DNA of 64,000 nucleotides from contig CAVYNY010000007.1 of the NCBI GenBank assembly GCA_963769935.1, forward strand, positions 224,001 through 288,000. Direction: 5' to 3'. Shown here piece by piece: positions 13,717 through 43,841 of the stretch; position 1 is the first letter of the stretch, and each line of letters starts with the position of its first letter. Origin of the DNA: an uncultured delta proteobacterium (GTDB lineage Bacteria; Desulfobacterota; Desulfobacteria; Desulfobacterales; JAFDCJ01). Both the position numbers and the translations under genes were made by a program. Below the pieces are notes generated by a model. The model was given only the letters and a program-made list of their open reading frames with translations. It was not told the origin of the DNA and made no database searches.

Positions 13717-13771
13717 GTATTTGCATCTCCTTTTCGAAGTCAACTTGCTGCCCGGACCATTTGATTTCTGC

Positions 13772-23162: not shown

Positions 23163-23298
23163 TATTTCCCCCTATGAATTGGCCTGAAAAAGGATTGGCC
23201 TGGGGGGAAGGCGTGTCCCTTTCAATCAGATGTAATTCGCACGAATCAGGCGTCATTATTGATTAGATGAAAAACGTGCAATCCAGGAGAAAGCTTCC

Positions 23299-24643
23299 AT
23301 GAAAATACTCAGTGTTGATGTCGGTACTACCGCTATGAAAATGGGGGTGTTTGAGGATATCAACGGCGGTCTTGACCTGCTCAGGCAATTCTACCAGGAG
23401 TATTCGATCAATACTTACAATGACGGGCTGTTCAGTGATATCGAGCAGGAAAAATGGCAGCAGGCGTTTGCGGCGGGGTGCAGGGAAATGTCAGATTTTA
23501 TGCCCCAAATCGATGTCATTGCCCTTTCCGGCACGACACCGGGACTGACGGCCATGGATCAGGAGGGCAATGCGCTTTATCCGGCCATTCTCATGCTGGA
23601 CCAGCGTTCCCGGACCCAGGCCCAGCAGATCATCGACCGGATCGGTCTGGAAACACTGCTCAAGTGCAACCGCCAACATGCCGGTGGCCGGCGGCTGTTC
23701 GCTGGCCAGCATTCTCTGGCTCAAAGACAATCTGCCCGGGGTGTTTAAAAAGACGCACGTTTTCGGCCATTCCAACACCTTCATGGCCCGCTGGCTGTCC
23801 GACAAATTTGCCATGGACCCCTCATCGGCCTCGCTGACGGCGATGTACCGTACCGCCGAGAATGATATGACCTGGGATAATGAAATCCTGGATGCGTTTG
23901 ATCTGTCGGCCGCCTGTTTGCCGGAGTTGATGCCGGCCTACCACAGCACGGGCAAGCTGCGCACGAGTCTTGCCGCAGAGTTTGGCTTCAAGAAGGAGCC
24001 GCCGGTATTGATCGGCGGCAATGACGCCGTGCTGGCAGCATATTCGGTGGGCATCCGGCAGCCGGGCGAAATCTTCAACATCAACGGCACCTGCGAAATT
24101 TCCATGGTCTGTCTTTCCAAATGTTTTGCCTCCCGCAATTATAACATCCGCACCCACGTCCTGCCGGAGCGGTGGTTTTCCTTTTATGTGATGAATGCAG
24201 GCGGCAAGGCCTTCGAGTGGTTTAAAAATCTTTTCTGCAGCGAGATGAGCGAAGAAAAATTCTTCAGCGATTTTATCCCGCATACTATTGAGAAGTGGTT
24301 GAACCGGGAAAGCGGTGTGGCTTATATGCCATATCTGATGGGTTCCAGGTATTCTCTGGCACCGCTGAAAGCCGAATTTCGCGGGCTGACCCAGGAGACT
24401 TCCCGCGAAGAACTGCTGGCCGCGCTGGTTCGGGGCCTTTGTGAGTATCAACGGGAGAATCTGAAGGAAGTTTCCCTTGAAATGCCCCTGGCCGATGAGA
24501 TCATAGTCTCCGGCGGGGCGGTCAATGAGGCGCTGATCCGTGCTAAAACCAAATGGATGCGCAACTGCAGCTACCGATTTGAGACCGAATCCTCGTTGAA
24601 GGGAGCAGCCATGTTGGGGCGGAAGTATTTAGTGGGTGGTTGA
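23299..24643 (+). pseudogene. FGGY-family carbohydrate kinase with one +1 frameshift (possibly intact in vivo)
   Basis: DVGTTAMK, DQRS, GGND, GT, PYLMGSR, SGG; frames join by removing one base at ~23662. Confidence 0.82.
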
Positions 24644-24680
24644 CTTTGATTTCACCCGGAATAATGGAATAGTGGAATTG
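24642..24680 (-). repeat. Internally deleted fragment of the 43.5-43.8 kb element, opposite orientation
   Basis: gactttgatttcacccg matches the reverse complement of 43720-43736 (14/17); ggaataatggaa matches the reverse complement of the TTCCATTATTCC tract at ~43676-43687. Confidence 0.6.
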
Positions 24681-24684
24681 TTAT

Positions 24685-24939
24685 TTGGACCGCGGACCCA
24701 TTGCCCTGGTGGAAGACGGCGATATCATATCCATCGATATTCCCGCCCGCACCCTGAATATCGTCGGACCTAAAGACGGCCGCCTTAATTCAAATGAGGT
24801 CCAAGCCCTGCTGGCCGAGCGCAAAAAGAGTTGGACCCCTGTCGTCCGGCAGCATCCCCCCGGGATCCTTAAACGATATACCTCCCAGGCGGCATCGGCC
24901 ATTAAAGGGGCGTATCTGGAAACTCAACGAACTCAATAA
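24685..24939 (+). pseudogene. C-terminal remnant of an IlvD/Edd family (dihydroxy-acid/sugar-acid) dehydratase
   Basis: GPIALVEDGDIISIDIPARTLN...ERKK...GILKRY...SAIKGA is the family C-terminus; most of the gene is absent. Confidence 0.82.
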
Positions 24940-24957: not shown

Positions 24958-26187
24958 ATGTTTCCAAGCTCACCATATCGACTTACGCTGCTGGTCTGCC
25001 TGGCGGAAATATTCGGCCTGGCTTCCATTGCCGTCTTTCCGGCGCTGCTGCCGACGTTCAAGGCGGAATGGCAGTTGAGCAACACGGCCGCCGGCTGGAT
25101 CAGCGCGGCCTATTATGCGGGCTACATGATTCTGGTGCCGGTGCTGACCAGCATCACCGACCGGATTGATGCCCGCCGGATTATGGGATTGGGAGCATTA
25201 TTCGCTGCCATGTCGGCCGCTGGCTATGCTTATCTGGCCCAGGGATTTTGGTCGGCCCTTGTACTGCGGCTTCTCTCCGGGGTAAGCTTGGCCGGAATTT
25301 ACATGCCCGGGCTCAAGGTGGTCGGCGATCACACCGAAGGGGAGGGGACGCTGCAGTCCCGGTTTGTTTCTTTTTACACCGCAAGCTTCAGCATCGGCGC
25401 CAGCCTTTCGTATCTGCTGGCCGGTGAAATCAATGTGCGGGCCGGGTGGCGCTGGGCTTTTATGGCATCTGCCATAAGTGCCGTCGGCGCACTGGTAATT
25501 GTCATTTTGTATGTGCCCCCGGCGCGGGTGCGCAGTGCTGAAAAGAACGGCGCCCTGCTCGCGGATTTCAAAATTGTTTTGCGATCCAAGGCGGCCATGG
25601 CTTATGTTCTGGCATACGCCGCCCACATGTGGGAACTTTTTGCGCTGCGAACCTGGATTGTGGCTTTCCTGGCCTTCAGCATTCAGCTGCAGCCGGCCGG
25701 CGCCTTTACCTGGCGTCCGACCCAGATCGCCTTTATTGTCAGTCTGATCGGGCTTCCGGCCAGCATCGGCGGCAATGAGTTGTCCCGTATCTTCGGCCGC
25801 AGAAAAGTTATAACGGTCGTGATGATCGTATCCGCGGCATTGGGAACGATCCTTGGTTTCAGCGCAGCCTTGCCGTACTTACTGGTGGCCTTCATGGCGA
25901 TCTTGTACGGCATCACCATTATTGGTGATTCAGCGTCGCTGACTGCCGGAGTTGTCGCCGTCGCCCCTGCGGGCTATCGGGGCACGACCCTGGCCGTTCA
26001 CTCCACCTTCGGATTTTGTTCAGCCTTTCTCAGCCCTCTGGCTGTCGGCGTCGTGCTCGACTTTTTCGGCGGCAACCGCCTGGCCTGGGGTATGGGCTTT
26101 GTCTGTATGGCCGCCGGCAGTTTGCTGGGGCCGGTGTTTTTAGCGCGGCTTAAGTCCGATACGAATGGGAAGAAAGATATAATTTAG
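24958..26187 (+). CDS. MFS transporter
   Basis: About 12 TM segments, TDRIDARR motif A, YMPGLK, HMWELF. Confidence 0.88.
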   Translation: MFPSSPYRLTLLVCLAEIFGLASIAVFPALLPTFKAEWQLSNTAAGWISAAYYAGYMILVPVLTSITDRIDARRIMGLGALFAAMSAAGYAYLAQGFWSALVLRLLSGVSLAGIYMPGLKVVGDHTEGEGTLQSRFVSFYTASFSIGASLSYLLAGEINVRAGWRWAFMASAISAVGALVIVILYVPPARVRSAEKNGALLADFKIVLRSKAAMAYVLAYAAHMWELFALRTWIVAFLAFSIQLQPAGAFTWRPTQIAFIVSLIGLPASIGGNELSRIFGRRKVITVVMIVSAALGTILGFSAALPYLLVAFMAILYGITIIGDSASLTAGVVAVAPAGYRGTTLAVHSTFGFCSAFLSPLAVGVVLDFFGGNRLAWGMGFVCMAAGSLLGPVFLARLKSDTNGKKDII

Positions 26188-26822
26188 ATATAAACTAAGG
26201 AATCCGGGTGTTAAAAAAGCACATAGCAGTTAGCAAAATATTCACTTTATTAAAAAATGGCTGTATGAACTAGAATTTTGGTGGTTTCGAATTAATTGCG
26301 ATAGAAGACGCATATCCCCCGTTTCACCGCCAGTATGCGATATAACAATATATTGTGCCGGACCACTGGCTCTAAAAATCATAACCCGTATATTTTTTTT
26401 CATACAATTTCCATATTTCCATAATTTCAGGGTTAGGCATGCAAACTTTTAGACAAACCAAGATTTGTTTTATTAGCTGATGCAATATGCAATCAGACTC
26501 CTCGAAGACTGTGGGGTGCATATTGGACTGGGGCAGGGATGACCTTGAGGGCTGATCGAAGGAACAAAATCCCTTCTGTCAAATAAAGAAATATCCTGAA
26601 AAACGCACAGAAAAGTATATTCCACCGGAAAACGATTTTTGGAAAGTCTTTAATTAAGCATAAGGCGACAGCCATGAACGGGTCCAGGGCCGTTAGATGC
26701 TTATCTCTTTATTGCATCTTGCCGGTTGAAGAATCGAGATATTCGGCTTCAAACTGTCCGATCTGGATTTTCCCAACAGTAAAGTTATGTTTTGAAGCCG
26801 AAGGCCGGAGTCCAATTTTGTA

Positions 26823-28073
26823 TTATCGTCTGTAATAGGATAGGACTTTTGTAATTGATGAGGCCATTGCCTCTGAATGCTGGGAAGTGAAACCTTCGTT
26901 CCAAACGATATAAATTGTTTCTCTGCAATGTTTTTCTGCCACCGGGCACAAGCCTTCTTCGAATCTATATTCCCCCCAAACTCCACTGAGGGGGAATCCG
27001 GATTTTCCAAACGTCATTCGATCACGCAAAACTTTATATAAGTAAAGAGGCCGATCTAAATAGCCACAATGTGCAGGGAGACCCTCCGCATTGAGAGCTT
27101 TTACAATGTCTGAAATTGGTACTCGAAACACTTGAGGATCAAGCCGGAACGTATAAGCATAGTAACTACAAAAGCCTCCGTCAACAATGCGCTGCGGATA
27201 TACCCCTATTTCGCTGCCAATTAATGCCGAGAGCAAGTTTGCGGAGCTACTTCTATCGACTACCACCTTATCAAGTTTGGGTAATTGTGCGAGGCCCACA
27301 GCAGCTTGGAGCTCAGTCATATGGTAGTTCGGAGCAAGAAAGAGGTGATCGCGCCACTCGTCACGCGGCCATCCCTTGTCAGCACACAGCCGAAGTTCGC
27401 GTCCAAAGGCCTTATCCTTTCTGGCTATGACGAGACCGCCGTCTCCCGTTGTAATGTGTTTAGATTGCTGGAGGCTAAAACATCCAAGGTCCCCTATGGT
27501 CCCTACAATTCTATTCTGATATTTAGCGAGAAAGGCTTGGGCACAGTCCTCAATCACGGCAATTTTATGCCTGTGTGCGATGTCCATTATTGGATCCATG
27601 TCACAAGGAGCTCCAAAAATATGGGTAACGATTATCGCTTTCGTTCGTGGGGTGATACGATCTTCAATGAGTCGTGGGGACATGGTAAAAGTTTCTTCGT
27701 CAATGTCTACAAATACTGGGATATTTGCCTGGTATAGGACTGGAATTACGGTTCCCATGTCGGTGATGGGGGAAGCCAGTATTTCATCCCCCGGCTCGGT
27801 GTTGAGAGAGATCAATGCCGCGTGTATTGCAGCGGTGCCGCTGCTTGTGGCTATAGTAAATGGAACACCGAATTTCTTGGCGAAATTTGCTTCAAATTGA
27901 CGAACTTTAGTGCCATATATATACGCGAGGGTTCCAGAGTCCAGCACCTCTTTGACGGCCTCCAACTCTTCTTCTCCTATGGTTCTCCCTGAGCGGTTTT
28001 TGTGGGTTGGCAATGGCCCCTTTATGGCCTTCTCTCCACCAAAGATCGCTAACTGCTCTTGTCTGTTTTGCAT
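26823..28073 (-). CDS. DegT/DnrJ/EryC1/StrS family PLP aminotransferase
   Basis: SSGTAA, PVFVDID, IEDCAQA, FSLQQSKHITTGDGG (PLP Lys), NYHMTELQAAVG; GGAGG RBS before ATG 28073. Confidence 0.92.
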   Translation of the reverse strand: MQNRQEQLAIFGGEKAIKGPLPTHKNRSGRTIGEEELEAVKEVLDSGTLAYIYGTKVRQFEANFAKKFGVPFTIATSSGTAAIHAALISLNTEPGDEILASPITDMGTVIPVLYQANIPVFVDIDEETFTMSPRLIEDRITPRTKAIIVTHIFGAPCDMDPIMDIAHRHKIAVIEDCAQAFLAKYQNRIVGTIGDLGCFSLQQSKHITTGDGGLVIARKDKAFGRELRLCADKGWPRDEWRDHLFLAPNYHMTELQAAVGLAQLPKLDKVVVDRSSSANLLSALIGSEIGVYPQRIVDGGFCSYYAYTFRLDPQVFRVPISDIVKALNAEGLPAHCGYLDRPLYLYKVLRDRMTFGKSGFPLSGVWGEYRFEEGLCPVAEKHCRETIYIVWNEGFTSQHSEAMASSITKVLSYYRR

Positions 28074-28171
28074 CTTACCTCCCATGCACAGTAAAATACT
28101 TTTGTTTTTCGTTAAAAAAGTCTAATGCAAAAACTGAATTATCAGTACCACAATGAGTATATTTTAATCCA

Positions 28172-29005
28172 TTATTTAAGACCCGAAAGGGCTATGCCGC
28201 GTATCATATACTTCTGCGAGATTATATACGCGATTAACATGGGGCCAGTGGAGAGCACGGTGGCCGCCATTAAGGGTCCATAGTTTATATTTCCATAAGG
28301 ATCCTTGAACAGGGCGAGCCCCACGGGGATCGTTCGCATGTTAGGTGAGTTTATTACGATTACTGGCCAAAGAAAATCGTTCCAACACTCCAGAAAAAGG
28401 ATCATTGCCACTGTTGCTATGATGGTCTTGACCAGCGGGGCGATGATGGTCAAAACGATACGAATTTCTCCCGCACCATCCATCCGCGCTGCCTCGATTA
28501 GATCCACGGGAATTGCTTTAATCCCCTGCCGGAGCATAAATACGCCGAAAGCGCTGGCGAAGTTCGGGGCCAAGATCCCTTGATAGGTATCCACCCAGCC
28601 GATTTTTGATAGCAAAACATACAAGGCAACGGATGTAACTTGGACCGGCACCATAAGCGTTCCCAAAATTAGGATAAAAAAGAAGTTTTGCAGAGGAAAG
28701 CGATAAACGGCGAACGCATACCCAGCGAATAATCCGAACAGGAGTGAACAGGTGACGGAGACAAAAGCAACGACGAAGCTGTTCCAGTAGTAGGTCAGCC
28801 ATGGAGCCTTTTCATAAGCTTCAATGAAGTGATGAATTGTCAGATGGGTTGGAATCCACTTGGGTGGAAAGGAGATGATGTCCTGCGCAGGACTGAAGGC
28901 GGTAATCAGCATCCAATAAAATGGACAGATCATCAGCACCGCCACGATACTAGCGATAAGGTAGAAATTCAAATTCCTAAGGCCCTTTACAATTGAACTC
29001 ACCAT
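28172..29005 (-). CDS. Carbohydrate ABC transporter permease (MalG-like)
   Basis: EAARMDGA EAA motif, WNDFLWP. Confidence 0.93.
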   Translation of the reverse strand: MVSSIVKGLRNLNFYLIASIVAVLMICPFYWMLITAFSPAQDIISFPPKWIPTHLTIHHFIEAYEKAPWLTYYWNSFVVAFVSVTCSLLFGLFAGYAFAVYRFPLQNFFFILILGTLMVPVQVTSVALYVLLSKIGWVDTYQGILAPNFASAFGVFMLRQGIKAIPVDLIEAARMDGAGEIRIVLTIIAPLVKTIIATVAMILFLECWNDFLWPVIVINSPNMRTIPVGLALFKDPYGNINYGPLMAATVLSTGPMLIAYIISQKYMIRGIALSGLK

Positions 29006-29017
29006 GTCCTTAACCCC

Positions 29018-29932
29018 TCAATATGTGACTTCAAAGCGCTTAGAGTAAACGTGTTGCAACATCGTGATTACCAATATAAAAATGAAGAGGACCATAGCCT
29101 CGGCTGCAGCTAGGCCGAAGTTGAAACGCTGAAACGCCTGCCGGTACAACTCCAAAACGACTACGTTGGTTGAATTGGCAGGACCCCCTCCAGTCAATAC
29201 AAAGACCTGATCGAAGACCTGGAAAGCGAGAATACTGTTATAGATCAAAATAAACGTTGTCGTGGGAGCTAAAAGCGGTACTGTGACGTGCCAAAAGCGC
29301 TGAAAGGCGCCGGCCCCATCGATGGTGGCTGCTTCGTAAAACTGTGCCGGGATGGCCTGAAGCCCAGCTAGGTAGATAATCATATTGTAGCCCAGGGTTT
29401 TCCAGATGCTAAAAATGATGATGGAAGTGAGCGCCGTATGGCTGGACATCAGCCAGGACTGAGGCTCAATATGCAACAGACGAAGGACGACATTAAAAAG
29501 TCCGAACTGGGGATTATATAGCCACCACCAGACCATTGCGGCGGCTACCGTGCTTGTTACCATGGGTGAGAAATAGATCGCCTTAAAGACAGACTGGAAC
29601 CGGAACTTGGAGTTGAAAATGACGGCCAACAATAGCCCGAGGGTGGCCGAGGTGGGGACGATGGCCGCGACGTACACCAAGGTGTTTAATGTTGCCCCGC
29701 GGAAGATCTCATCCGTGAGAAGAGATCGAAAGTTATCTAACCCGATGAAGGTAAATTGTCTCCGAAGCAATTCAACTTTGTAAAAGCTGTAGAGCAGGGT
29801 CTGGATGGAGGGGACTACCCGAAACAGACCGAAGAACAAAATGACAGGCGCGATAAAAAGGTAGGCATGGAAAATGCGTCTTGAGCGGAGGGTGGCCAAA
29901 GTATGCGCCACTGATTGTTTATGCTTACCCAA
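29018..29932 (-). CDS. Carbohydrate ABC transporter permease (MalF-like)
   Basis: GLDNF, AGLQAIP..YEAATIDGA, FQVFD; TTG start is uncertain. Confidence 0.92.
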   Translation of the reverse strand: MGKHKQSVAHTLATLRSRRIFHAYLFIAPVILFFGLFRVVPSIQTLLYSFYKVELLRRQFTFIGLDNFRSLLTDEIFRGATLNTLVYVAAIVPTSATLGLLLAVIFNSKFRFQSVFKAIYFSPMVTSTVAAAMVWWWLYNPQFGLFNVVLRLLHIEPQSWLMSSHTALTSIIIFSIWKTLGYNMIIYLAGLQAIPAQFYEAATIDGAGAFQRFWHVTVPLLAPTTTFILIYNSILAFQVFDQVFVLTGGGPANSTNVVVLELYRQAFQRFNFGLAAAEAMVLFIFILVITMLQHVYSKRFEVTY

Positions 29933-29966
29933 TTTCTTTGTACTCCCGGGTTTCGAGTTTCAAAGA

Positions 29967-29996
29967 GCTGCCCCAGGGGAACCTCCCTGGGGCAGC
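29967..29996 (-). other. GC-rich intercistronic hairpin after the binding-protein gene
   Basis: Perfect 12-bp stem GCTGCCCCAGGG / CCCTGGGGCAGC with no good U-tract. Confidence 0.7.
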
Positions 29997-30003
29997 AGCC
30001 AGT

Positions 30004-31299
30004 CTATTTAGCGGCGTCAGCGATAGCTTTGTTGCCCAGTCGTTCCGCATCAGCGAGTGCCTCATCAACGGAAGCCTCGTGATGCCAAACTTTCTGGATG
30101 GCAGAACCGAGTGCATCAAAGATGCCATTGAGTCCGAGGTTATTTGGATAAGATATCCCGCAAAGGTAGAGAGGCTTTAGGCTTTGATCGTATGGATCGG
30201 ACCTGAAGGGCTCCTTATCCCAGTTTTCCATGTACAGGGGTGTTGCATCATACTTTTTGGCTAGTTCGTAGTCCTTCTGTGGGCTGTTTAGCCATTCAAG
30301 GGCCTTCCAGGCCAGCTCTTTATTTGTGGCCTGCCTCGGCACAACATACATCCAGGCGCCCATAAGAGTCACATGCTTATCTCCAGCGTGGGGTACGGGC
30401 GGTAAAGCTACCCCCCACTTCAGATCTGGAGCATCTCTGGGCTGTTGAGCCTTGATGCTCACGGTCTCGCTGATTTGCATGGAGGCGATACCGCTGATAA
30501 AGGCGGCGCGGGGATCCGGAAAGTTCAGGCTCGTTGATCCGTCCACGTCCAACATGTCCAAAATGAGTTGAAGCGCGGATTTACCGGCCGCATTGTTATA
30601 CATCGTTTTGCCTCCGCGCAGAGCCAACGGATCGTTGACCAATGCAGCGCCTGCCCCATAAATGGCCCACCAGTGCTTGTGAACGATCCCATGGGGATGC
30701 CCTACATGCCGGATGGCATACCCCACCCGCGTAATGTTGCCTTGACTGTCTCTTTTGGTCAATTTCTTGGCATATTCACGAAATTCAGCCCAGGTTACAG
30801 GCGGCCTTTCGGGATCCAGTCCGGCCTCTTCAAAATGCGCCTTATTCCAAGTCAAGCCATAGATCTCAAGGCCGAACTGGGGATAGCCCCACATTAGGCC
30901 ATTGCCGTAATCCGAAAGCGTCCTGACCTCTGGAGCGGTAGCCGCAAGCCAGGCCTTGGCTTTTGCCTCGGATACCGGCTCTAACATATCCTCCTTCAGA
31001 AATCCAGGAATCCAGGACCTGTCAACGAGCAGGATATCGCCTGTTTTCCCTGCCGCCGCACTCGCAAAAAGCTTCTGAATCATCGTGTCATAGTCCAATC
31101 CCACCAGCTGCACTTTACAGTTGTTTTTAGCCTCAAACTCGGCAAACAAGGTCTTGTCCTTGTATGAGGCAGTTCCCGGAGCGATGTCTCCTTCGGGATA
31201 CCACAGGGAAATGGTAGTGGGGCCCGCACTGGCTATCGTTACGAGGGCGAATAAAAAGATGATAGCCAATGTTAAGCACATAGTCTTATGATTTTTCAT
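30004..31299 (-). CDS. Carbohydrate ABC transporter substrate-binding protein (family 1)
   Basis: Signal peptide ending ASA, WNKAHFEEAGLDPERPPVTWAEF; AGGAGG RBS. Confidence 0.9.
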   Translation of the reverse strand: MKNHKTMCLTLAIIFLFALVTIASAGPTTISLWYPEGDIAPGTASYKDKTLFAEFEAKNNCKVQLVGLDYDTMIQKLFASAAAGKTGDILLVDRSWIPGFLKEDMLEPVSEAKAKAWLAATAPEVRTLSDYGNGLMWGYPQFGLEIYGLTWNKAHFEEAGLDPERPPVTWAEFREYAKKLTKRDSQGNITRVGYAIRHVGHPHGIVHKHWWAIYGAGAALVNDPLALRGGKTMYNNAAGKSALQLILDMLDVDGSTSLNFPDPRAAFISGIASMQISETVSIKAQQPRDAPDLKWGVALPPVPHAGDKHVTLMGAWMYVVPRQATNKELAWKALEWLNSPQKDYELAKKYDATPLYMENWDKEPFRSDPYDQSLKPLYLCGISYPNNLGLNGIFDALGSAIQKVWHHEASVDEALADAERLGNKAIADAAK

Positions 31300-31558
31300 C
31301 GAAAAGTACCTCCTTTTCAGCCAAGGTTGGCAAGAAAAATTGATTTTATTTGACGGCCCTTGTTTGAGCCATCCCCATACACACCATTATTTCCTGGTCA
31401 ATGATTCATCAGGTCAAGTTTATATTGGGAGATCCTTTTAGTAAATTCTTTGAACTGTATTCATTATCAGGCAATCTTCTTAATGCGATCCCGACGGATC
31501 AAGCCTGGCACTTTGAGCGAAACGGTATTCAACGGGCTCTTGTACCAAAATTATCGCA

Positions 31559-31655
31559 ATGTATACATAACTAGTGTGATATCATGTTCTGATAATCATT
31601 TTTATTAATCCCCTAAAAAATTATTGTCAATACAAAATTTATATAATTTTGTATT
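31559..31655. promoter_or_regulatory. Candidate GntR operators in the binding-protein/ATPase divergent region
   Basis: Perfect palindrome ATGTATACAT (31559-31568) and inverted repeat AATACAAAATT-N5-AATTTTGTATT (31629-31655). Confidence 0.55.
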
Positions 31656-31846
31656 CATTTTATGCTTGCTTTTTAATACAATAGCTTTTATTCTTTTTTG
31701 CATTGGCATAATAGGTTATTGTTGCACCTTTAAGAATTATAGGTATTCTTAAATATAGATTATAGACTGGCCGACTATTGGTATGAGAGGAACAACTATT
31801 ACTGGTCACTCAGCCTGGATAGCATGACTTATCGGAGGCACCATAA

Positions 31847-32953
31847 ATGGCAAAAGTTGTGTTGAAAAGTCTTACTAAAAAATACGGCAATGTTGTGGCA
31901 GTAAACAATGTCAATCTTGAGATTTCAGACCGGGAGTTTGTTGTGCTGGTTGGACCTTCCGGCTGTGGCAAAACAACAACCCTGCGGATGATGGCCGGGT
32001 TGGAGGAAATCACGGAAGGGGATATCTATATCGGGGATCAACGGGTCAATGATTTGGTATCAAAAAACCGCAACATCGCCATGGTGTTTCAAAGCTATGC
32101 TCTCTATCCTCATATGAATGTTTTCGATAATATGGCCTTTGGGCTAAAAATGCGCAAGGTGCCAAGGAAAGAGCGGATAAAGTTGGTCCGGGATGCGGCA
32201 GACATTTTAGGGGTTCAGGACTTGTTGGACCGCAAACCCAAACAGCTCTCGGGCGGCCAAAGGCAGCGTGTTGCTTTAGGACGAGCGATTGTTCGTAATC
32301 CGGAAGTGTTTCTGTTTGACGAACCTCTGAGCAACTTGGATGCAAAACTTCGGGTGCAGATGCGAACTGAGTTGGTCAAGTTGCACAAGCGACTGAAATC
32401 AACTTCAGTCTATGTTACCCATGATCAAGTAGAGGCCATGACCATGGGAGATCGTATCGTGGTGATGAAGGACGGCCTGGTCCAACAGGTAGGTGCTCCC
32501 TTAGAGCTTTACAACAAACCTGCTAATCTATTTGTTGCCGGTTTTATTGGCAGCCCGGTTATTAACCTTCTGCCGTGCCGGATGGTAAGGGAAAATTCCC
32601 TGGTGTACCTAGAAACCAGCGGTTTTAAACTACAGCTTCCGGAAGATTTGGCTATGACTTCGCTAGCCGCAAAGGCAACAGAATTTATTTTGGGGGTGCG
32701 CCCGGAAGACATTGCCCAAGATTGGAAGGGAGAGCCATCTGCCCGAAAAAGCGGCCACATCCAAACCAAAGTGGATGTCATCGAAACGCTAGGCAAGGAA
32801 ACGTATATAGATATTATAACGGGGGATGATAAAATGACCGCGATCATAAGCCCCAACATAAAAGTTGCCATTGGTGATGACATCAATTTAGAAATAAACA
32901 TGGACAAGATTCATCTGTTTAGTAAAAAACAAGGTGGAGAGGCAATTTTTTAA
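31847..32953 (+). CDS. Carbohydrate ABC transporter ATP-binding protein (MalK/UgpC-like)
   Basis: GPSGCGKT, LSGGQRQR, DEPLSNLD, YVTHDQ, C-terminal TOBE region. Confidence 0.95.
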   Translation: MAKVVLKSLTKKYGNVVAVNNVNLEISDREFVVLVGPSGCGKTTTLRMMAGLEEITEGDIYIGDQRVNDLVSKNRNIAMVFQSYALYPHMNVFDNMAFGLKMRKVPRKERIKLVRDAADILGVQDLLDRKPKQLSGGQRQRVALGRAIVRNPEVFLFDEPLSNLDAKLRVQMRTELVKLHKRLKSTSVYVTHDQVEAMTMGDRIVVMKDGLVQQVGAPLELYNKPANLFVAGFIGSPVINLLPCRMVRENSLVYLETSGFKLQLPEDLAMTSLAAKATEFILGVRPEDIAQDWKGEPSARKSGHIQTKVDVIETLGKETYIDIITGDDKMTAIISPNIKVAIGDDINLEINMDKIHLFSKKQGGEAIF

Positions 32954-33155
32954 TGGAGATGCCTCGTAAAAGACTTGGTTGGTATAATCTACGGCGTTTG
33001 CTTGCTGTGAATGCCGTTATAGACCTAATATAAATTATGCCACAGCAGGTGTTTGTTTGCGCTGCTATGAGCTTGTTTTCGAAATGGTAAATCAACCGAT
33101 TGCCTAAATGCCGTGTTATGTCAGGCATCCGGCAAATATTAGGAGGGCTTACATT

Positions 33156-33992
33156 ATGATTAAGCTTGCAGTTGCGGTTGCCACCGAAGATGCAATTCCT
33201 GATGCGTTTGTAGTGTGGCGGGGCATTGAGGCCTCTATGCGCAAGGCTGTTGAATTCGGGTATGACGGAATTGAACTTGCGCTTAAACATGCAGGACAGG
33301 TGAAGGCGGACAGGCTTGAAGCGTTTTGTTCTGAATACGGAGTTTCGATTCCATGCATTTCTACCGGACAGGTTTTCGCCGGACTCGGTTTGTATTTTAC
33401 GCACCCCGATAAAAATAAAAGGAAAGAAGTAAAAACTGTCTTCAAAGATCTAATTGATCTTGCATCTCGGTTCGGTGCCATGGTCAATATCGGTAGGGCA
33501 AGAGGTTTTGTAGAAAAAAACGAAACCATGGAGAGTGCACAGCTGCGATTTCTTGAAATTGTACGGGAGCTGGCTGAATACGCTAGTGGGAAAGCAGTAA
33601 ATCTTATTTTAGAACCTGTTAACCGGTATGAGATAAATTTTATCAACTCCGTCGAGCAAGGGGCCGCTCTTATGAAAACAATAGGGGCCCCTAACATGGG
33701 GCTTATGCCTGATCTATTTCACATGAATATTGAGGACCGGACGCTCGGCGGCGAACTTGAGCGATTTTCAGAATACGTAAAATATATCCACTTTGCGGAT
33801 TCAAACCGCTTGGCTCCGGGGCAAGGGCATATTGATTTCGACAGTGTGTTTGAATCGCTTGAAAAAATGAATTATGACGGCTGGGTTTCAGTAGAGATTT
33901 TACCGAGACCCGATCCGGATGCAGCAGCTCGCCAAGCAATCGAATATCTGAAACCTCGGATTGATAAATATAATATACCCGGAAAGTATTGA
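33156..33992 (+). CDS. Sugar phosphate isomerase/epimerase, IolO (5-keto-L-gluconate epimerase)-like TIM barrel
   Basis: STGQ, IGRARG, EPVNRYE, DLFHMNIE, HFADSNRLAPGQGH, SVE; AGGAGG RBS before ATG 33156. Confidence 0.87.
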   Translation: MIKLAVAVATEDAIPDAFVVWRGIEASMRKAVEFGYDGIELALKHAGQVKADRLEAFCSEYGVSIPCISTGQVFAGLGLYFTHPDKNKRKEVKTVFKDLIDLASRFGAMVNIGRARGFVEKNETMESAQLRFLEIVRELAEYASGKAVNLILEPVNRYEINFINSVEQGAALMKTIGAPNMGLMPDLFHMNIEDRTLGGELERFSEYVKYIHFADSNRLAPGQGHIDFDSVFESLEKMNYDGWVSVEILPRPDPDAAARQAIEYLKPRIDKYNIPGKY

Positions 33993-34209
33993 ATGCCGCT
34001 GCAATCCAGATATAAAACAACATATAAGGCCAGTCTTGTGATTTGCAAATGCCTTGAATAATTAACCCGGTTACTGAAAGCCCAAATTGAAAACAAATTG
34101 ACCGGTTTTGAGCGCTTTGTGGAAACCACATGCTGTGATGGGTGTTGCAACACATGAAAAAAGGCCCTCAGAACATCGTTCATAAATTGCACAAATTAAG
34201 GAGGTCATA

Positions 34210-35112
34210 ATGAAAAACAGTATCGGTTTTGTCGGCGCCGGCCTGATGGGAAGAGGAATAATTAAAAACTTACTGAAAAATGGTTATTCCGTACAAATTT
34301 TTATCCATAAAAGCACTGAAGCAGCTGAGATTTTGGGAAAAAAGGGAGCCACAACTACCCGCTCCCTTGAAGAACTGGCAAACCAAAATGAAGTATTTAT
34401 GCTGGCCGTTCCAGCATCTCCTGAGGTGGAACAGGTGATTTTGGGCAATCAGGGTCTTATTAACTTCCTATCCAAAGGAAAGATAATAATTGACTTGAGT
34501 ACGAGCTATCCTGAATCCACAAAAATGATTGTGGAAAAATTGCAAAAAAAAGGAATTAGAATGTTGGACGCTCCGATGACCGGCAGCACACCACAGGCGG
34601 AGGCGGGCGAACTGAACCTGATGGTAGGCGGCGAAAAATCGGACTACGACGAGATGTACCCTATATTTGAGGCAATAGCAAAAAACATCTTTTTTGTGGG
34701 AGAACATGGGGCTGGGCATACTGTGAAATTAATGAACAATTTTCTCGGACAGCTGAATGTATCCGGTTTATCAGAAATGCTGGTTTTCGGGCAAAAATAT
34801 GGAATTGATTTGCAGGCATTTTTCGACGTCGTCAGCGTCAGCGGAGGAAATAGTGCCGCCTTTCAGGGCACGGTGCCAAAGGTTTTGAGCAGAGATTTCG
34901 GAGTCTCGTTTCATCTGAAACTCGTGCATAAGGACTTGCGATATATTACGGAACTCGGTCGTGCAACAGGAGCACCCATGCCGATTGCCAATAATATCTT
35001 TAATATGTACGATATGGCAAAGGCAGCAGGTTATGGTGATGAAAACTTTTCCGCGATAGTCAAATTATATGAAAAAATTACCGGTGTAGAGGTTAAGAGA
35101 GAGAAAAAATAG
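34210..35112 (+). CDS. Beta-hydroxyacid dehydrogenase (HIBADH/GarR/LtnD family)
   Basis: GFVGAGLMG, DLSTS, DAPMTGS, VKLMNN, KDL. Confidence 0.9.
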   Translation: MKNSIGFVGAGLMGRGIIKNLLKNGYSVQIFIHKSTEAAEILGKKGATTTRSLEELANQNEVFMLAVPASPEVEQVILGNQGLINFLSKGKIIIDLSTSYPESTKMIVEKLQKKGIRMLDAPMTGSTPQAEAGELNLMVGGEKSDYDEMYPIFEAIAKNIFFVGEHGAGHTVKLMNNFLGQLNVSGLSEMLVFGQKYGIDLQAFFDVVSVSGGNSAAFQGTVPKVLSRDFGVSFHLKLVHKDLRYITELGRATGAPMPIANNIFNMYDMAKAAGYGDENFSAIVKLYEKITGVEVKREKK

Positions 35113-35532
35113 AGACTTTAATTGATAGCAATCCTTTAATATCTAAGGAAAAGAGAAAAACTTGCGGAGGCCGATGGAGTTGGGAGATATAAAGATTACC
35201 TGCCAAATAATCAACCCAGTCCAAGCGGCCACCGCAAGTGAAATCCAGTAAATCACAAAAGCGAGAAGGCTTCTATAAAATGCCCATGATTCGATTCGAG
35301 GATCAACGAACTTAGGCAGGGCAGTTCAATCCGCCAACGTCCCTGTCGAAGTCACCGCCGTTGGCTTCAACAAAAGCAAAAAGGGGTGCTCGCAGCTGCT
35401 CCCCCTTATTTTACACCGCCAAGCAAACGGGTTAATTTTTAGCTATCTATCGTCGCCCCGGTAAAATGCCTGACTCAAATGAGGCCGAACGGTTTAAGCC
35501 GAACTGTTTTACGCAATATTGGATAAGAATCT

Positions 35533-36885
35533 TTAAAGACCATATGCAGAGCGGTCGCGGCGCATTTCACAGAGCAATTCATCCACGACTAATAAGGTCT
35601 TCTCCACATCCTCGGCTGTATGGGCTGCTGAAGTATATTGCCGTCCCCTTGAGGGATGAAACCTGATGCCTCTTTCCAGGCCGCCTTTTCTGAATTTTTG
35701 ATACGCAACTTTGTTGACCATGAAATTGTCTCTGTAGTCATTCATTTTCTGCTGTATCCCGAATGCAAGTTGCCAAATTGACCCAACTGCATCACAAAAT
35801 AAGCAAATATCATTACTTTTAGCGATGGCTGCTATTCCGTCTACCACGGATCTTGTCAAGTTCGCCATATGCTCATAAATCGAAGGATTTTCCAACTCTC
35901 CGATCGTTGCTTTGCATGCTGCAATACAAATTGGATTTCCATTAAACGTTCCCACAGGATGCACACCCGAGTCCATTATTTCCTTTTTTCCGGCAACTCC
36001 GGCTAACGGATAACCCCCTGCTACCGCTTTTCCGAATGAACATGTATCCGGGGTCACGCCATAATACTCTTGCGCCCCGCCGATGGAAAGGCGGAATCCG
36101 GTGATTACCTCATCGAATATCAAAACGATGTCGTTTTTTGCCGTCAGATCTCTTAGGCCTTGCAAGTAACCGGGTTTGGGAAAAATAGGCTCACAGTTGC
36201 CCATGATAGGCTCTGTGATTATGGCGGCGATCTCATGCCCTTGCCTTTCTATTACCTTTTCGACCAATTCTAAATCGTTCCACGGAAGCACTATTATATC
36301 ATCTGCCGCCTTTTCGCGTTGACCAGCGCTGCCAATCGTTTTCCAGGGTTTATTTCTCGGCCCTAAATGTTGCAGAGAATCGGGTCTAACGCTTATCAGT
36401 TCCTCGTCGGACCAGCCATGGTAATGCCCCTCGAATTTTACTATTTTATCTTTGCCAGTAAATGCTCTTGCTAAGCGGAAGTTCAGCATATTTGCCTCTG
36501 TGCCACTAGCTGTGTAGCTAACTAATTCGGCACAAGGAATTATGTCAACCAATTTTTCGGACACTTCATTGAGTATTTTGTCCGGGGCAGCGAATATCGA
36601 TCCTCTGCCTATCTGATCGATTACTTCCTGATTCAAAACAGGGGGACAGTAGCCAAGTATCATCGGCCCATAGCCACCCATATAATCAATATACTCGTTG
36701 CCATCGACATCATAAATCTTTGACCCTTTTCCACGCTCAATATAGATAGGGTAATTTTCGGTTGGTGATTTGTGCAGGCTACTTGCTACTCCGTTGACAA
36801 GGCAACTCTTGGCCTTCTCGAAATATTCCCTCGATTTGGCGGTTTTTTCCCCCCAAAAATCATTCTGTTTCAAATTCGACTGCAT
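35533..36885 (-). CDS. Class III aminotransferase, glutamate-1-semialdehyde aminomutase-like
   Basis: DVDGNEYID, SGTEA, KFEGHYHG, FDEVITGFR, FGKAVAGGYP, GTFNGNP; context argues against housekeeping hemL. Confidence 0.88.
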   Translation of the reverse strand: MQSNLKQNDFWGEKTAKSREYFEKAKSCLVNGVASSLHKSPTENYPIYIERGKGSKIYDVDGNEYIDYMGGYGPMILGYCPPVLNQEVIDQIGRGSIFAAPDKILNEVSEKLVDIIPCAELVSYTASGTEANMLNFRLARAFTGKDKIVKFEGHYHGWSDEELISVRPDSLQHLGPRNKPWKTIGSAGQREKAADDIIVLPWNDLELVEKVIERQGHEIAAIITEPIMGNCEPIFPKPGYLQGLRDLTAKNDIVLIFDEVITGFRLSIGGAQEYYGVTPDTCSFGKAVAGGYPLAGVAGKKEIMDSGVHPVGTFNGNPICIAACKATIGELENPSIYEHMANLTRSVVDGIAAIAKSNDICLFCDAVGSIWQLAFGIQQKMNDYRDNFMVNKVAYQKFRKGGLERGIRFHPSRGRQYTSAAHTAEDVEKTLLVVDELLCEMRRDRSAYGL

Positions 36886-37014
36886 CTTGAAAACCCCTTT
36901 TCCGGTCAAAATTATTAATAAATAGTATCTGAAATCACTGAACCCGATTTCGAGGATTGCGAAAACATTTCAGGCTTTAATATTCGCAAACAAAGGAGTA
37001 GTTAACAGCGCTAC

Positions 37015-37596
37015 TTACTTCAACCCTTCTGACAAATAGGCGATACAGGCAAGTTCTTCAATAAGATCGGCCATGTTGTAAGCCGTTACGATGTCTTGTC
37101 CCAAGGCTACAATTCCATGTTGCTCCATTAAAAGGGCTTTGCAGCCAGGGTTTTCTTTAATGACGCGTGCAACATTTTTCTGCAGATCATCTGACCCTGA
37201 CGGGGCAAAAGGTACACGCGGCATTGGAGGTTGTTTAAAAGCTGCATCAGTCACCATAGGTATGTCCCGCTGTTTTACTGCAAAGGCTGTAGCATAGGGC
37301 GAATGGACATGCAAAACGGCACTGATATCAGGGCGCAAACGTAAGATATCGGCATGGAAGCGATACTCTTTGGAAGGTTGATAACTTCCACCCTTCGTCC
37401 ATTCATAGGAAGTAATGCGAACATGGACCAGGTTATTTAGCTCACTATCGCCGAGAGAAATGCCTGAGGCAGTGATAACCATATCCTTCTCGCTCAGCCT
37501 TGCGCTAAAATTTCCGCCTGTGCCTCCAACAAGGCACCTATGATAAGCCTTTTGGGCGTATGCCACAAGTCGCTTTCGTATCTCTTCTTCTGTCAT
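37015..37596 (-). CDS. Class II aldolase/adducin family protein (FucA/AraD-like)
   Basis: GGNFSAR, PSKE..FH, HVHS, QHG metal ligands; start overlaps the kinase stop. Confidence 0.9.
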   Translation of the reverse strand: MTEEEIRKRLVAYAQKAYHRCLVGGTGGNFSARLSEKDMVITASGISLGDSELNNLVHVRITSYEWTKGGSYQPSKEYRFHADILRLRPDISAVLHVHSPYATAFAVKQRDIPMVTDAAFKQPPMPRVPFAPSGSDDLQKNVARVIKENPGCKALLMEQHGIVALGQDIVTAYNMADLIEELACIAYLSEGLK

Positions 37597-39155
37597 TCTT
37601 TCTTTGCTCCTGTTATCCAAACCTCAGGTAAATCTAATTTCGCCAACCGTTCAAAATACGGTTTAACATCTATATAGAGTTCTTTATAAATTGGGAACAG
37701 ACGATCGTATACGGCCTGACCGATGGGCTCAGGATGGAACTCACGACCTGTCACGACAACTTGATTCACTGCAGTTAAATAATCGGGGTAGGCTCCGACG
37801 CTGACGCCGGCCAGTATAGCAACGCCCAGCACTTCGGTATGCGCCTGCGTCAAACTCACTATTTTTTTCCCCAATGCGTTAGCAATGATTTGATTCCATA
37901 CGTTGCTTTCAGCGGCTGCGCCTCCAATACGAATTGTCTTAATATCCAATCCTCGGTCCAATTCAAGAATTTCGACCACATGTTTGATAGCAAATGCGGC
38001 ACCCTCCAAAACAGAGCGTATAAAATCGTTGCGATTATGACCCAGTGTCACTCCGAAAAAGACCCCACGGGCAAATGGGTCCCAGATCGGTGTCCGTTCG
38101 CCTGAAATATACGGTAAGAATACTAAGCCTTTGCTTCCAGGAGGCGCTTGTTCCGCTTGGGCGGTCAGAAAATCATAAGCATCCTGCTTAGTTAAATTCG
38201 CCATTGTTTGTTCCGTCTGACCGAAATTATCCCTCAGCCAGCGTAAAGAAGACCCCACACCATTGATAGCCCCGATAGATAACCAACGATCGTTTACGAC
38301 ATGGGTGCAGTTCATAAACCGATCGTCAAATTGAGGTTCGCCCAAGGTGGAGGCCACCCTTGCGGCTGTTCCCATAATGATGAAGCAGTCACCCGGGCTC
38401 ATAACACCAGATCCGATAGAGGCCCCGACTGTGTCCATGCAGCCGGCGATTACAGGAGTACCGGGAGCCAATCCAGTCAGACGTGCTGCCTGAGTCGTGA
38501 TTTCGCCTGCTACTGCTTCGGATGGAAGTACTCTTGGCATCTTCTCCAGTGGAATCCCCAGTGCTTCTCGGAAAGAGCTATGCCATTCCATCTTCCGAAT
38601 ATCGAATAAAAGGGTAGTAGAAGCCCTTGAGTAGTCCATCGTGAACTGGCCTGTTAGCCGGGCCACAATATACCCGCCGGGCACCATAAGTTTATGGGCG
38701 GCATCGAATGTATCAGGGTCCTCGTTTTTCAACCATAGAATTGATGGTAGAGAATAGGCACCAGGTGCTACAGGGTTGCCTGCAATGGCGAAAACGTTGT
38801 CTGCCCCTAAAATTCGGCGAACTTCTTCCACCTCCGGGAGGGTTCTCTGGTCCCATAGCATGATGGCAGAGCGAAGTGGCTGTCCCTTGGAATCAACGGC
38901 GATCAACCCGTTAGTACAACCCACTCCTATGGATAAAATTTCTTTCGAATTGATACCCTTTATCGCTTTACTGATAGCCTGCACTGCAGCCCGCCACCAC
39001 ACCTCGGCATCATGTTCCGCTTGGCCGGGCACCTTGCTGATCATTTGGTATTCACCATATCCTGTTCCGATGAGGGAGCCATCCAAGGCGAAGAGCCCAA
39101 CCTTGGCGCCGGTCCCCCCAATGTCAAGACCCAATAGGTAAGGACCTTCTTTCAT
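37593..39155 (-). CDS. FGGY-family carbohydrate kinase (xylulokinase-like)
   Basis: GLDIGGTGAK, WDQR, PYISGERTPIWD, LEG, GG. Confidence 0.92.
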   Translation of the reverse strand: MKEGPYLLGLDIGGTGAKVGLFALDGSLIGTGYGEYQMISKVPGQAEHDAEVWWRAAVQAISKAIKGINSKEILSIGVGCTNGLIAVDSKGQPLRSAIMLWDQRTLPEVEEVRRILGADNVFAIAGNPVAPGAYSLPSILWLKNEDPDTFDAAHKLMVPGGYIVARLTGQFTMDYSRASTTLLFDIRKMEWHSSFREALGIPLEKMPRVLPSEAVAGEITTQAARLTGLAPGTPVIAGCMDTVGASIGSGVMSPGDCFIIMGTAARVASTLGEPQFDDRFMNCTHVVNDRWLSIGAINGVGSSLRWLRDNFGQTEQTMANLTKQDAYDFLTAQAEQAPPGSKGLVFLPYISGERTPIWDPFARGVFFGVTLGHNRNDFIRSVLEGAAFAIKHVVEILELDRGLDIKTIRIGGAAAESNVWNQIIANALGKKIVSLTQAHTEVLGVAILAGVSVGAYPDYLTAVNQVVVTGREFHPEPIGQAVYDRLFPIYKELYIDVKPYFERLAKLDLPEVWITGAKKE

Positions 39156-39507
39156 ATGGCCGTCGCCTCATTGTCGCGAAATAAATTCGCCATCCGAACA
39201 AAGTTTCGTCTATTCATTTTCGCCCCGAGCGGAGCATTTCATCCAAGTATTGGTCAAGTTAAATCCAAGGAGGTTCTCAAACTTTGCTGATATTTTCGCT
39301 TTTTCTTCATTGTCAGATCGCAAAATTGCGGCTTTCTTAGTCCGCTTTTCTATGAAGTGTGCCCTGCTTTGCTGCCTTTTTTCTCAGTTTGGCCATGAAT
39401 GAAATAATTCATGGCACTGCACTAACCCAAAACCTCAAATCTGTTTGCAAAAAAGAGGAATATATGAGTGCAATATACGCTCTAAATGAATCCAATAAAC
39501 AACCAAA

Positions 39508-39595
39508 TAGTATACAAAATATGCTTTGTCAATAGATATATTGGGATATTATTGGACAAAAAAATGGTTGATTTTGTATACCTTTTAGGTATAAT
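39508..39595. promoter_or_regulatory. Candidate GntR operators and gntR promoter
   Basis: GTATACAAAAT (39510-20) and its perfect inverse ATTTTGTATAC (39571-81); TTGATT-N16-TATAAT (39568-39595) facing gntR. Confidence 0.55.
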
Positions 39596-39660
39596 CCTAC
39601 TCGATTAGAAAATAAACTGATTGAAAGCTATCCCCTTCAATTAATGGATCGGAGAAACTG

Positions 39661-40368
39661 ATGAGTCGACCTAAAAAGGACATAGTAGTGCAATCCACTA
39701 CCGGCGGCACCTTGCAAGATAAGGCATATGATTATGTAAAAGAAAAAATAATGAAACGGGGTTTGGCGCCCGGTCAGAATGTGACGGATGCCCAAATTGC
39801 CAATGAACTGAACATGAGCCGAACCCCTGTTCGAGGAGCATTGCTTCGCCTGGATCAAGAAGGGTTCCTTGTCAGTAACGCTGGCAAAGGTTGGAAAATA
39901 TATTCCCTTTCTTTGGAAGATATTAAAGATATTTTTGATATTAAATTGCAATTGGAGGGAATGATTTGCAGAAAAGCTGCTGCCAGCGATGATAAGAAAA
40001 TGCGGGGCCTTTTAAAAGCAACGCTTAAAAATATGAAAAAAGCTTTTGAATCCTATGATCTCACAGCATGGCAGACTGCGGATATGGAACTGCATAACAC
40101 AATCTTTGCCATGAGCGCCAACCAACGAGCCGCCCGCATAATCAAAGATCTGAATGATCAATGGTACCGTGTACAGATTGGACTTGTTGCACTGGAGGGT
40201 CGAATGCAGCGCTCGATTACTGAGCATGAGGCTATCGTCGAAAGCATTCTGGCCAACGATGAGGAAAATGCAGATATCAATATGCGGCGTCACCTGACGA
40301 ACCTGAGGGAAGAGCTTGTCAGGGTATTGGTTAACCTTGTATTTCCTTTCGCGCAAAACGGTATTTAA
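39661..40368 (+). CDS. GntR family transcriptional regulator (FCD domain)
   Basis: wHTH with MSRTPVR; C-terminal FCD with DMELH, EHEAI, RHL. Confidence 0.92.
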   Translation: MSRPKKDIVVQSTTGGTLQDKAYDYVKEKIMKRGLAPGQNVTDAQIANELNMSRTPVRGALLRLDQEGFLVSNAGKGWKIYSLSLEDIKDIFDIKLQLEGMICRKAAASDDKKMRGLLKATLKNMKKAFESYDLTAWQTADMELHNTIFAMSANQRAARIIKDLNDQWYRVQIGLVALEGRMQRSITEHEAIVESILANDEENADINMRRHLTNLREELVRVLVNLVFPFAQNGI

Positions 40369-41123
40369 TATTAACATTTACCCACACCGGGCTATATATC
40401 CTCGATAGAAAAGATTACCTTCTGACAAGGGGTCAGTTTTCTTGCCTGTAGGGCACCCTCAAGGGTGAATACGACACCTATGCAATTCACTTTTTTAACG
40501 TCAATCTGATCTGGAAGTTTTAATTTATATATTTTGGATTGCGATACGCAATTTAAAAAAAAAATTAAATGATGGATTGCCGCAATGAAGCAAATCTTTT
40601 AGTACTGGCAAAAAATCTTGGATTTGTTGTTCTAATCTCTCCATCATTGATTTCCACCAAAAAAATGGCGGACACTATATATTGTGGTAAGCCTTTTGAT
40701 CTCATGCTTGAAGACTACTCGATATATCTCAAAGCAAAAATTTATTTTTGTTTGTTATTAAGTACAGGAAGATTTTATTCTCATACCTTGTGCAAGATGC
40801 CCAACTATCATAATGATCAAAAATATTGCAGATACGAAATGGATATTTTATGCTTGCCCCAGTCGATTTGCGAATGTCAAACCCAAAAACCTGGAAGCTC
40901 AAGCCAGGGAAATTTCTCAAACCCCAATAAATCGGAATCTATTGCCTTGTTTCCAACTCGAAAATAATATCGTTATTTTATTCCAATTGCGGTTTAGCCT
41001 TGATTTGGATAAACTTAAGAGTGCATATTTTTTCGGTTGATTTTTGTGATCATTCGCCTTAATTACATCCGGCTGGTTCTATCCTGTGAGGATCACTGTA
41101 GGTTTTGCGGAAAGATTTAGTAA

Positions 41124-43351: not shown

Positions 43352-43499
43352 TGATTTAGCTCCTGTTTGATTATGAGTACGAATTGTTTCGGTTTGGGTA
43401 TTGATCAAAATATGATCCTTATCTAAACCGAAGTGGTATCGCATGTCAAATTTTAATCTTCTGGAAGCGGGGGCCGTGAAAAAATCCTGTTGGTCCTTT

Positions 43500-43800: not shown

Positions 43801-43841
43801 AAACAAGAACCCCTTTTTCGAAATATTAGTATGAGGCTGCG

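Follow-up and report, generated by a model that had tools for sequence, protein, structure and literature searches.

Several described routes for polyhydroxy compounds share enzyme families with the locus analysed here, a cluster of 11 genes within a 64,000-nucleotide stretch (the window) of contig CAVYNY010000007.1 from an uncultured delta proteobacterium. The D-tagaturonate that IolO forms from 5-keto-L-gluconate is passed on to a reductase and an altronate dehydratase (PMC12632266, in excerpt); L-threonate as well as D-erythronate is degraded in four steps by Ltn2D, OtnI, 3OtnK and 3OtnC (PMC12994016, in excerpt); and rhizopine (mosB, mocABCDEFR), an amino-cyclitol made by MosB, is taken up by an ABC system and serves as carbon and nitrogen source (PMC10107442, in excerpt). 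With the IolO-type inositol route the cluster shares an IolO-like epimerase (the best match in both PDB and NCBIfam), sugar ABC uptake and an orthologue of its solute-binding protein located in an IolM/IolO/IolB locus; unlike that route, it lacks IolG, IolM and IolN, its epimerase scores below the IolO cut-off, two aminotransferases stand upstream, and a kinase, an aldolase and a reductase are placed downstream, where the known pathway has a reductase and a dehydratase. The tetronate route similarly brings together a beta-hydroxyacid dehydrogenase, a TIM-barrel isomerase, a kinase and a class II aldolase family member, whereas the kinase of the cluster belongs to the FGGY family, the LtnD, OtnI and OtnC models score far below cut-off, and a sugar ABC system and two aminotransferases are extra. 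As in rhizopine use, an ABC-imported amino compound would supply carbon and nitrogen and an aminotransferase is present, but MosB, which we take to be a DegT family enzyme, is biosynthetic, MocA, MocC, MocDEF and MocR have no counterpart in the cluster, and its regulator is of the GntR/FCD type.

The cluster is real and intact, a recently inserted, predicted catabolic island whose enzymes belong to uncharacterised subfamilies. Its 11 open reading frames (ORFs; 26823..40368) contain no internal stops, and Pfam identifies their products as DegT_DnrJ_EryC1, BPD_transp_1 (twice), SBP_bac_1, ABC_tran, AP_endonuc_2, NAD_binding_2/11, Aminotran_3, Aldolase_II, FGGY_N/C and GntR/FCD proteins, in agreement with the divergent arrangement, families and strands given in an earlier note made from the DNA letters (Table 1). 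Also as noted there, none of the 11 is a glycosyltransferase or nucleotidyltransferase by Pfam, which likewise detects no phosphatase or exporter among them. GC content is 0.40-0.52 over the island (mostly 0.43-0.49), against mostly 0.51-0.56 on its left, and in codon adaptation all 11 genes fall within the lowest 8% of 3883 ORFs of the host genome (8.0 Mb, 96.7% complete); the major facilitator superfamily (MFS) and short-chain dehydrogenase (SDR) genes of the right flank, outside the island, are also low in codon adaptation. When 22 other genomes of the genus were searched at the DNA level, with 13 candidates per genome scored, matches covered the flanking DNA, the generic ATPase gene and some intergenic stretches, and the other ten island genes had no match. 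Two of these genomes carry the flanks joined without the island: in one (G018:C1275) the left MFS gene is followed by about 1.15 kb and then by sequence matching window position 41023, and in the other (G008:C62) by one ORF and then the SDR gene. The island is an insertion, and its GC shift, atypical codon use and empty site in two relatives establish it as a real unit that was likely acquired horizontally. Self-containment, as claimed by the earlier note, stands for the island as a unit rather than for a single pathway; the complete set was seen in one genome only. No terminal repeats, tRNA or Rfam elements were found for the island, the promoter and terminator counts within it are at chance level, and in sequencing runs at most 0.11 of its words were present, in short pieces only, with one contig joining the flanks through a 38-base side.

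We consider it probable, with a fair margin of safety, that the island serves the breakdown of an amine-bearing polyhydroxy compound. Part of the evidence comes from the transporter. At least 120 relatives of the binding protein at 58-77% identity, the named ones from Methylomirabilota and Armatimonadota, form a family in which R197, H198, K208, D262, R264 and E278 are invariant; its predicted structure (pLDDT 92) is folded like sugar- and oligosaccharide-binding proteins, with about 25% identity to the matches, and none of the structural neighbours of the model points to a ligand. A metagenome scan gave at least 11 close (61-72%) and at least 69 distant loci among the matches listed, and within that set an aminotransferase lies no more than 3.5 kb from the binding protein in 5 of the 11 close loci, versus none of the 69 distant ones. 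These neighbouring aminotransferases fall into two class III subfamilies, to neither of which the class III enzyme of the window is orthologous, and suggest a transported substrate that bears an amine, in line with what the earlier note had proposed. Other close loci carry IolM, IolO and IolB genes, all above cut-off (L091), or genes for a Zn-dependent dehydrogenase, an FGGY kinase, a Cgl0159 protein and a TIM barrel (L088), and four of the 11 have no informative neighbour. In L087, a DgaE-like gene (5676-6905), resembling glucosaminate-6-phosphate ammonia-lyase and scoring below cut-off, faces the class III gene next to a binding protein orthologue. Close matches to the binding protein were absent from 400 other genomes of the phylum and from 101 of another phylum.

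The catabolic direction is indicated by the DegT enzyme, which scores 268 bits with PF01041 (cut-off 19.8) and has the pyridoxal phosphate (PLP) lysine motif SLQQSKH. Its NCBIfam matches are mostly biosynthetic DegT models, the best equivalog reaching 182 bits against a cut-off of 420, and, unlike nucleoside diphosphate-amino-sugar clusters, the island offers it no nucleotidyl- or glycosyltransferase partner. Among the best 80 genome loci the nearest relative (51%) is from Ammoniphilus resinae, in the order class III aminotransferase, GntR, M81 amidase, DegT, TRAP; among plasmid matches, 9 of 24 are at 50-52% and come from Azospirillum and Rhizobium. Three of these plasmid loci, opened for inspection, share altronate-dehydratase and dihydrodipicolinate synthase (DHDPS)-family genes, two of them also having shikimate-dehydrogenase-like and aldehyde dehydrogenase genes, to which the Azospirillum locus adds M81 and an amino-acid ABC system and the Rhizobium locus a hydantoinase, an SDR and sugar ABC genes. 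In a quick tree (74 rows, with 73 of 85 loci kept and short matches left out), the window DegT groups with those of Ammoniphilus, Azospirillum and Rhizobium (SH-aLRT 96), while a sister group lies in glycosyltransferase clusters. Of the 15 best loci, eight have uptake markers, five glycosyltransferases and two neither, and the only match in 40 related genomes (37%) is within a surface-glycan-type cluster. The wider subfamily, as judged from these neighbourhoods, is mixed, and its clade nearest to the window sits in predicted uptake and acid-sugar catabolic loci in three of three cases, which upholds the catabolic direction first assigned to the island. None of five genomes carrying other island modules has a close DegT match. 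Fusion to a Gfo/Idh/MocA dehydrogenase occurs in several longer relatives. As side observations, the plasmid clusters with shikimate-dehydrogenase-like, DHDPS, altronate dehydratase, aldehyde dehydrogenase and M81 or hydantoinase genes (L165:9564-21581, L166:61-16707) have culturable hosts, and Paenibacillus relatives (L005, L008, L009) share operons with genes for a heparinase II/III-like protein, a sugar ABC system and esterase-like proteins.

The class III aminotransferase shares its fold, 37% identity and the catalytic lysine with the HemL of the same genome; identity with HemL was nevertheless rejected, as TIGR00713 gives it 366 bits (cut-off 527) and gives 661 bits to the true HemL, located at C27:1186-2538, so that the island enzyme is not the only HemL of the genome, a point on which the earlier note had made its proposal depend. 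Its best 120 matches are at 56-72%, and a 17-row clade has a support of 100/99 in the tree. LHK and SRGR replace the PVRA and SQFE of HemL; PVRA occurs in none of 120 family members, and RGR takes the place of SQFE in 113 of 120. An arginine at the SQFE-equivalent position presumably binds the 2-oxo-acid acceptor, and by the structure-function relations of class III enzymes the set of motifs fits a true transaminase. Kinship with the aminoglycoside 6'-aminotransferases NeoB/GenB, raised in the earlier note, was discarded: the C-6' aminotransferase of PDB 7lld, which we take to be of the GenB type, has the same class III PLP fold and matches at 113 bits, as opposed to 287 for glutamate-1-semialdehyde aminomutases. 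An orthologue in G1029 (62%) follows a DHDPS-family gene, near genes for SoxA/ThiO-like oxidase subunits, an aldonate-dehydratase-like enolase, an aldehyde dehydrogenase, an Fe-dependent alcohol dehydrogenase, TTT/TRAP transporters, and idonate-5-dehydrogenase-like and mannonate-oxidoreductase-like proteins; another in G697 (64%) is flanked by a DHDPS-like fragment and a RidA-like gene, each identified by eye. In all three contexts seen, including the island, the class III gene follows an aldolase-family gene. The large G1029 cluster (L312:3140-19671, L313:1-9425), which combines two DHDPS and two class III aminotransferase genes with acid transporters and subunits like those of imino-acid oxidases, may serve to break down a hydroxylated imino acid. 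No close match was present in sets of 300, 86 and 161 genomes, none was new among 66 more, nothing above 39% was seen among 78 loci of viral contigs, and the ESM Atlas matches are generic class III clusters only.

The aldolase retains the catalytic glutamate of FucA (PSxE; PSKE in 117 of 120 relatives) and its three metal-binding histidines, and carries the family motif TDAxFKQP in place of the HYMIAAAG of FucA, a replacement that suggests a substrate with a polar or charged distal group. A search of 300 genomes of the order gave orthologues at 63-75% in two, and one of 281 genomes from a related class gave them in five; an FGGY orthologue (61-72%) lies immediately upstream in all seven. PdxA-like and Asp/Glu-racemase-like genes accompany the pair in six of the seven, the seventh contig beginning within the kinase, and all five loci from the class of G813 include in the operon a beta-hydroxyacid dehydrogenase (32-35% identical to that of the island) together with TRAP or TTT acid transporters; neighbour families were profile-scanned for two of the seven loci and recognised by likeness in the rest. 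Six loci (L298, L300, L302, L303, L305, L285) show the kept operon TRAP/TTT-PdxA-like-beta-hydroxyacid dehydrogenase-racemase-like-GntR-FGGY-class II aldolase, which is predicted to encode an acid-sugar route with an FGGY kinase.

Of the remaining two enzymes, the epimerase was called IolO-like by the earlier note with good reason: IolO (NF041099) is its best NCBIfam model (255 bits, cut-off 300; next model 91), the best PDB match is TM0416 (E 5e-47), and the metal-site motifs EPxNRYE, DxFHMNIE, HxADSNR and VSVE are shared with the latter. The dehydrogenase is closest to tartronate semialdehyde reductase GarR (PRK11559, 245 bits for a cut-off of 397; TIGR01505, 236 for 341; best PDB match 1vpd). 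The models of the tetronate route stay below their cut-offs, with LtnD at 203 of 350 bits, OtnI at 68 of 325 and OtnC at 88 of 250.

In combination, the modules point to an amine (the transporter, and DegT relatives with amidases), to an acid sugar (TRAP/TTT transporters, dehydratases) and to 5-keto chemistry (the IolO-like epimerase, and 5-keto reductase-like genes near a class III orthologue), which favours a route through a 5-keto-aldonate. In this tentative best reading, for which we infer from sequence all substrates, all reactions and the use of one compound by every module, an amine-bearing sugar or sugar acid would be imported, deaminated to a 5-keto-aldonate, epimerised, phosphorylated, cleaved and reduced. 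After uptake through the ABC system, DegT would run in the deaminating direction and turn a secondary amine carbon into a ketone, such as C5 in a 5-amino-5-deoxy-hexonate, which is what an iminosugar becomes on ring opening; the IolO-like enzyme would epimerise C4 of the 5-keto-hexonate, the FGGY kinase phosphorylate C6, and the class II aldolase cut between C3 and C4 to give dihydroxyacetone phosphate (DHAP) and tartronate semialdehyde or an analogue, which the dehydrogenase would reduce to glycerate or its analogue. We favour this route because cleavage of a 6-phospho-5-keto-hexonate would release DHAP and tartronate semialdehyde, and the dehydrogenase best matches tartronate semialdehyde reductases. 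The class III enzyme would take off another amine, from a terminal position ahead of epimerisation or, as its position behind an aldolase-family gene in three of three contexts suggests, from the aldehyde fragment. A more specific version, which we hold to be doubtful, is a hitherto undescribed route for amino-deoxy sugar acids, those derived from iminosugars or others. In it, a catabolic DegT would act on a nucleotide-free substrate and a new FGGY kinase-class II aldolase pair would split 6-phospho-5-keto-hexonates into DHAP and tartronate semialdehyde; in Rhizobium leguminosarum and Azospirillum, enzymes of this DegT clade would supply a non-phosphorylative variant.

A number of observations weigh against the 5-keto-aldonate reading. 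Only the ATPase passes an NCBIfam cut-off, and none of the six island enzymes does, so that no function can be assigned by family rule. The island block contains no lactamase, amidase or oxidase, and an M81 amidase was not found in the host genome by a search whose control gave no signal; the hydantoinase pair of that genome is 39% and 28% identical to the Rhizobium one. The complete set was found in no other genome or contig searched, pairs and sub-sets being all that a limited sampling with many short contigs gave, nor was DegT found there together with the binding protein family. DegT is beside the binding protein in none of the 11 close loci among the matches listed, and the five such loci with an aminotransferase are mutually related and would reflect about two events. 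Neither an aminotransferase of any kind nor the class III enzyme in particular accompanies the kinase-aldolase pair in the seven other genomes, the class III and aldolase orthologues of G1029 are about 850 kb apart, and the Ammoniphilus class III enzyme, 39% identical to that of the window, is outside the tight family. Glycosyltransferases occur near 5 of the 15 best DegT loci, and the titles and abstracts searched hold no precedent for the action of DegT enzymes on an open-chain acid. At third codon positions GC amounts to 0.57-0.62 in the genes of the binding protein and permeases, to 0.50 in that of the ATPase and to 0.41-0.48 in all others, and no operator shared by the two divergent promoter regions was found. 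The expectation of the earlier note that the genes keep company elsewhere failed in part, the kinase-aldolase pair lacking an aminotransferase in 7 of 7 genomes and the class III gene following a DHDPS-family gene in 2 of 2. Five small candidate co-occurrences between match lists were treated as chance, and plasmids hold no close orthologue of the class III enzyme, aldolase, epimerase, dehydrogenase or kinase.

From these comparisons the island looks assembled from modules, and it is conceivable, if unlikely, that two or three unrelated ones (transporter with DegT; kinase, aldolase and GntR; class III) were gathered by recombination and do not act on a single compound. Each module occurs elsewhere without the others, their third-position GC is unequal, they share no detected operator, and the surrounding host DNA is a sugar-acid locus in flux whose left side carries broken genes; yet all 11 genes are intact despite those broken neighbours, and the gene of the transporter ATPase comes first in the opposite unit, ahead of those of the epimerase and dehydrogenase, a link between two of the units. 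The presence of a beta-hydroxyacid dehydrogenase with the kinase-aldolase pair, here as in five other loci, also speaks for a joint function, although the low identity of these dehydrogenases tempers the point. An inosamine- or streptamine-type aminocyclitol, deaminated to an inosose, opened by enzymes encoded elsewhere and then processed as a 5-keto-acid, seems rather unlikely as well. The inosose aminotransferases 2c7t, 5w70 and 7b0d are among the PDB matches of DegT, but they score no better than perosamine synthase, and the closest relatives of DegT have acid transporters and acid-sugar enzymes as neighbours. Binding protein orthologues in the IolM-IolO-IolB and the Zn-dehydrogenase/FGGY/Cgl0159 loci agree with a cyclitol, as does the precedent of rhizopine as carbon and nitrogen source (PMC10107442, in excerpt). 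The host genome has two full creatininase-family genes, the family to which IolN presumably belongs, whereas its best IolM-like matches are at 31-34%, IolB has no match at 1e-20, and IolM, IolN, IolD and IolE are absent from the island by Pfam (IolD and IolE were searched in the island only). The lack of a ring-opening enzyme in the island makes the aminocyclitol option of the earlier note less likely.

We regard as improbable a four-carbon route in which amino-tetronates, fed in by the aminotransferases, would undergo L-threonate/D-erythronate-like oxidation, isomerisation, phosphorylation and decarboxylation to DHAP. The LtnD, OtnI and OtnC models all match the three corresponding island genes, the known four steps use a dehydrogenase, OtnI, OtnK and OtnC (PMC12994016, in excerpt), and kinase-aldolase orthologues sit with PdxA-like genes; for each gene, however, other models score higher, and the binding protein is folded like those for sugars and oligosaccharides. 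The usual OtnK family is DUF1537, to which the FGGY kinase of the island does not belong. That the unit instead turns a keto precursor into an amino sugar or an aminocyclitol is very improbable: DegT enzymes are usually biosynthetic, as their NCBIfam models reflect, and the sister DegT group sits in glycosyltransferase clusters, but an importer with binding protein, a kinase and an aldolase are present, the transferase, phosphatase and exporter functions mentioned above are missing, and the nearest DegT clade is catabolic in all three cases.

Table 1. Location of the island and its genes within the window, with the evidence for each assignment.
Feature	Position	Strand	Evidence
Inserted island between two MFS genes	26160..41020		Empty site in relatives, GC, codon use
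DegT/StrS-family PLP aminotransferase	26823..28085	-	Pfam, relatives' loci, tree
Sugar-type ABC permease, MalG/UgpE type	28172..29005	-	Pfam, NCBIfam; 70-80% to orthologues (full-length matches)
Sugar-type ABC permease, MalF/UgpA type	29018..29932	-	Pfam, NCBIfam; 65-80% to orthologues
Solute-binding protein (SBP_bac_1), tight uncharacterised family	30004..31299	-	Invariant residues, model
ABC ATPase, UgpC/MalK type, above UgpC subfamily cut-off	31847..32953	+	Pfam, NCBIfam
IolO-like TIM-barrel epimerase of keto-sugars (or keto-sugar acids)	33156..33992	+	NCBIfam, PDB match
Beta-hydroxyacid dehydrogenase, best match tartronate semialdehyde reductase, below cut-off	34210..35112	+	NCBIfam, PDB
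Class III PLP aminotransferase, glutamate-1-semialdehyde aminomutase-like, not HemL; tight family, 56-72%	35533..36882	-	NCBIfam, PDB, tree
Class II aldolase, FucA fold	37015..37593	-	Alignment to FucA structures
FGGY carbohydrate kinase, adjoining the aldolase in 7 other genomes too	37593..39155	-	NCBIfam, neighbourhoods
GntR/FCD regulator, divergent from kinase operon	39661..40368	+	Pfam

The start codons at 33156, 36882 and 37593 probably lie slightly downstream of the longest-ORF starts, and AGGAGG, resembling a ribosome site, precedes the first of them. Each divergent promoter region includes one AT-rich palindrome (31633-31651 and 39576-39594), the two being mutually dissimilar. In the left flank (21631-24918), an altronate-dehydratase-family gene and an FGGY kinase gene are split over several frames and an IlvD-like gene is reduced to its last 75 codons, all three being whole in G018; these broken genes may reflect either decay or assembly error. 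To the right (42572-45095) are an SDR resembling gluconate-5-dehydrogenase and a nickel-pincer isomerase (group 22, above cut-off), both kept in relatives, and a second, similar isomerase-like gene is found at 12460-13743.

In summary, neither this cluster nor a catabolic DegT route nor an aldolase route for 5-keto-hexonates is described in the titles and abstracts searched, and the island can be regarded as one more orphan catabolic cluster of familiar folds, seen whole in one genome only. The bacterial consumption of natural amino sugars, iminosugars and aminocyclitols beyond glucosamine is poorly charted, and the present work yields three tight protein families without an assigned role, namely the binding protein, the class III transaminase and the kinase-aldolase pair. 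Rhizobium leguminosarum, Azospirillum brasilense and Ammoniphilus resinae provide culturable stand-ins for the DegT step, which makes the question testable.

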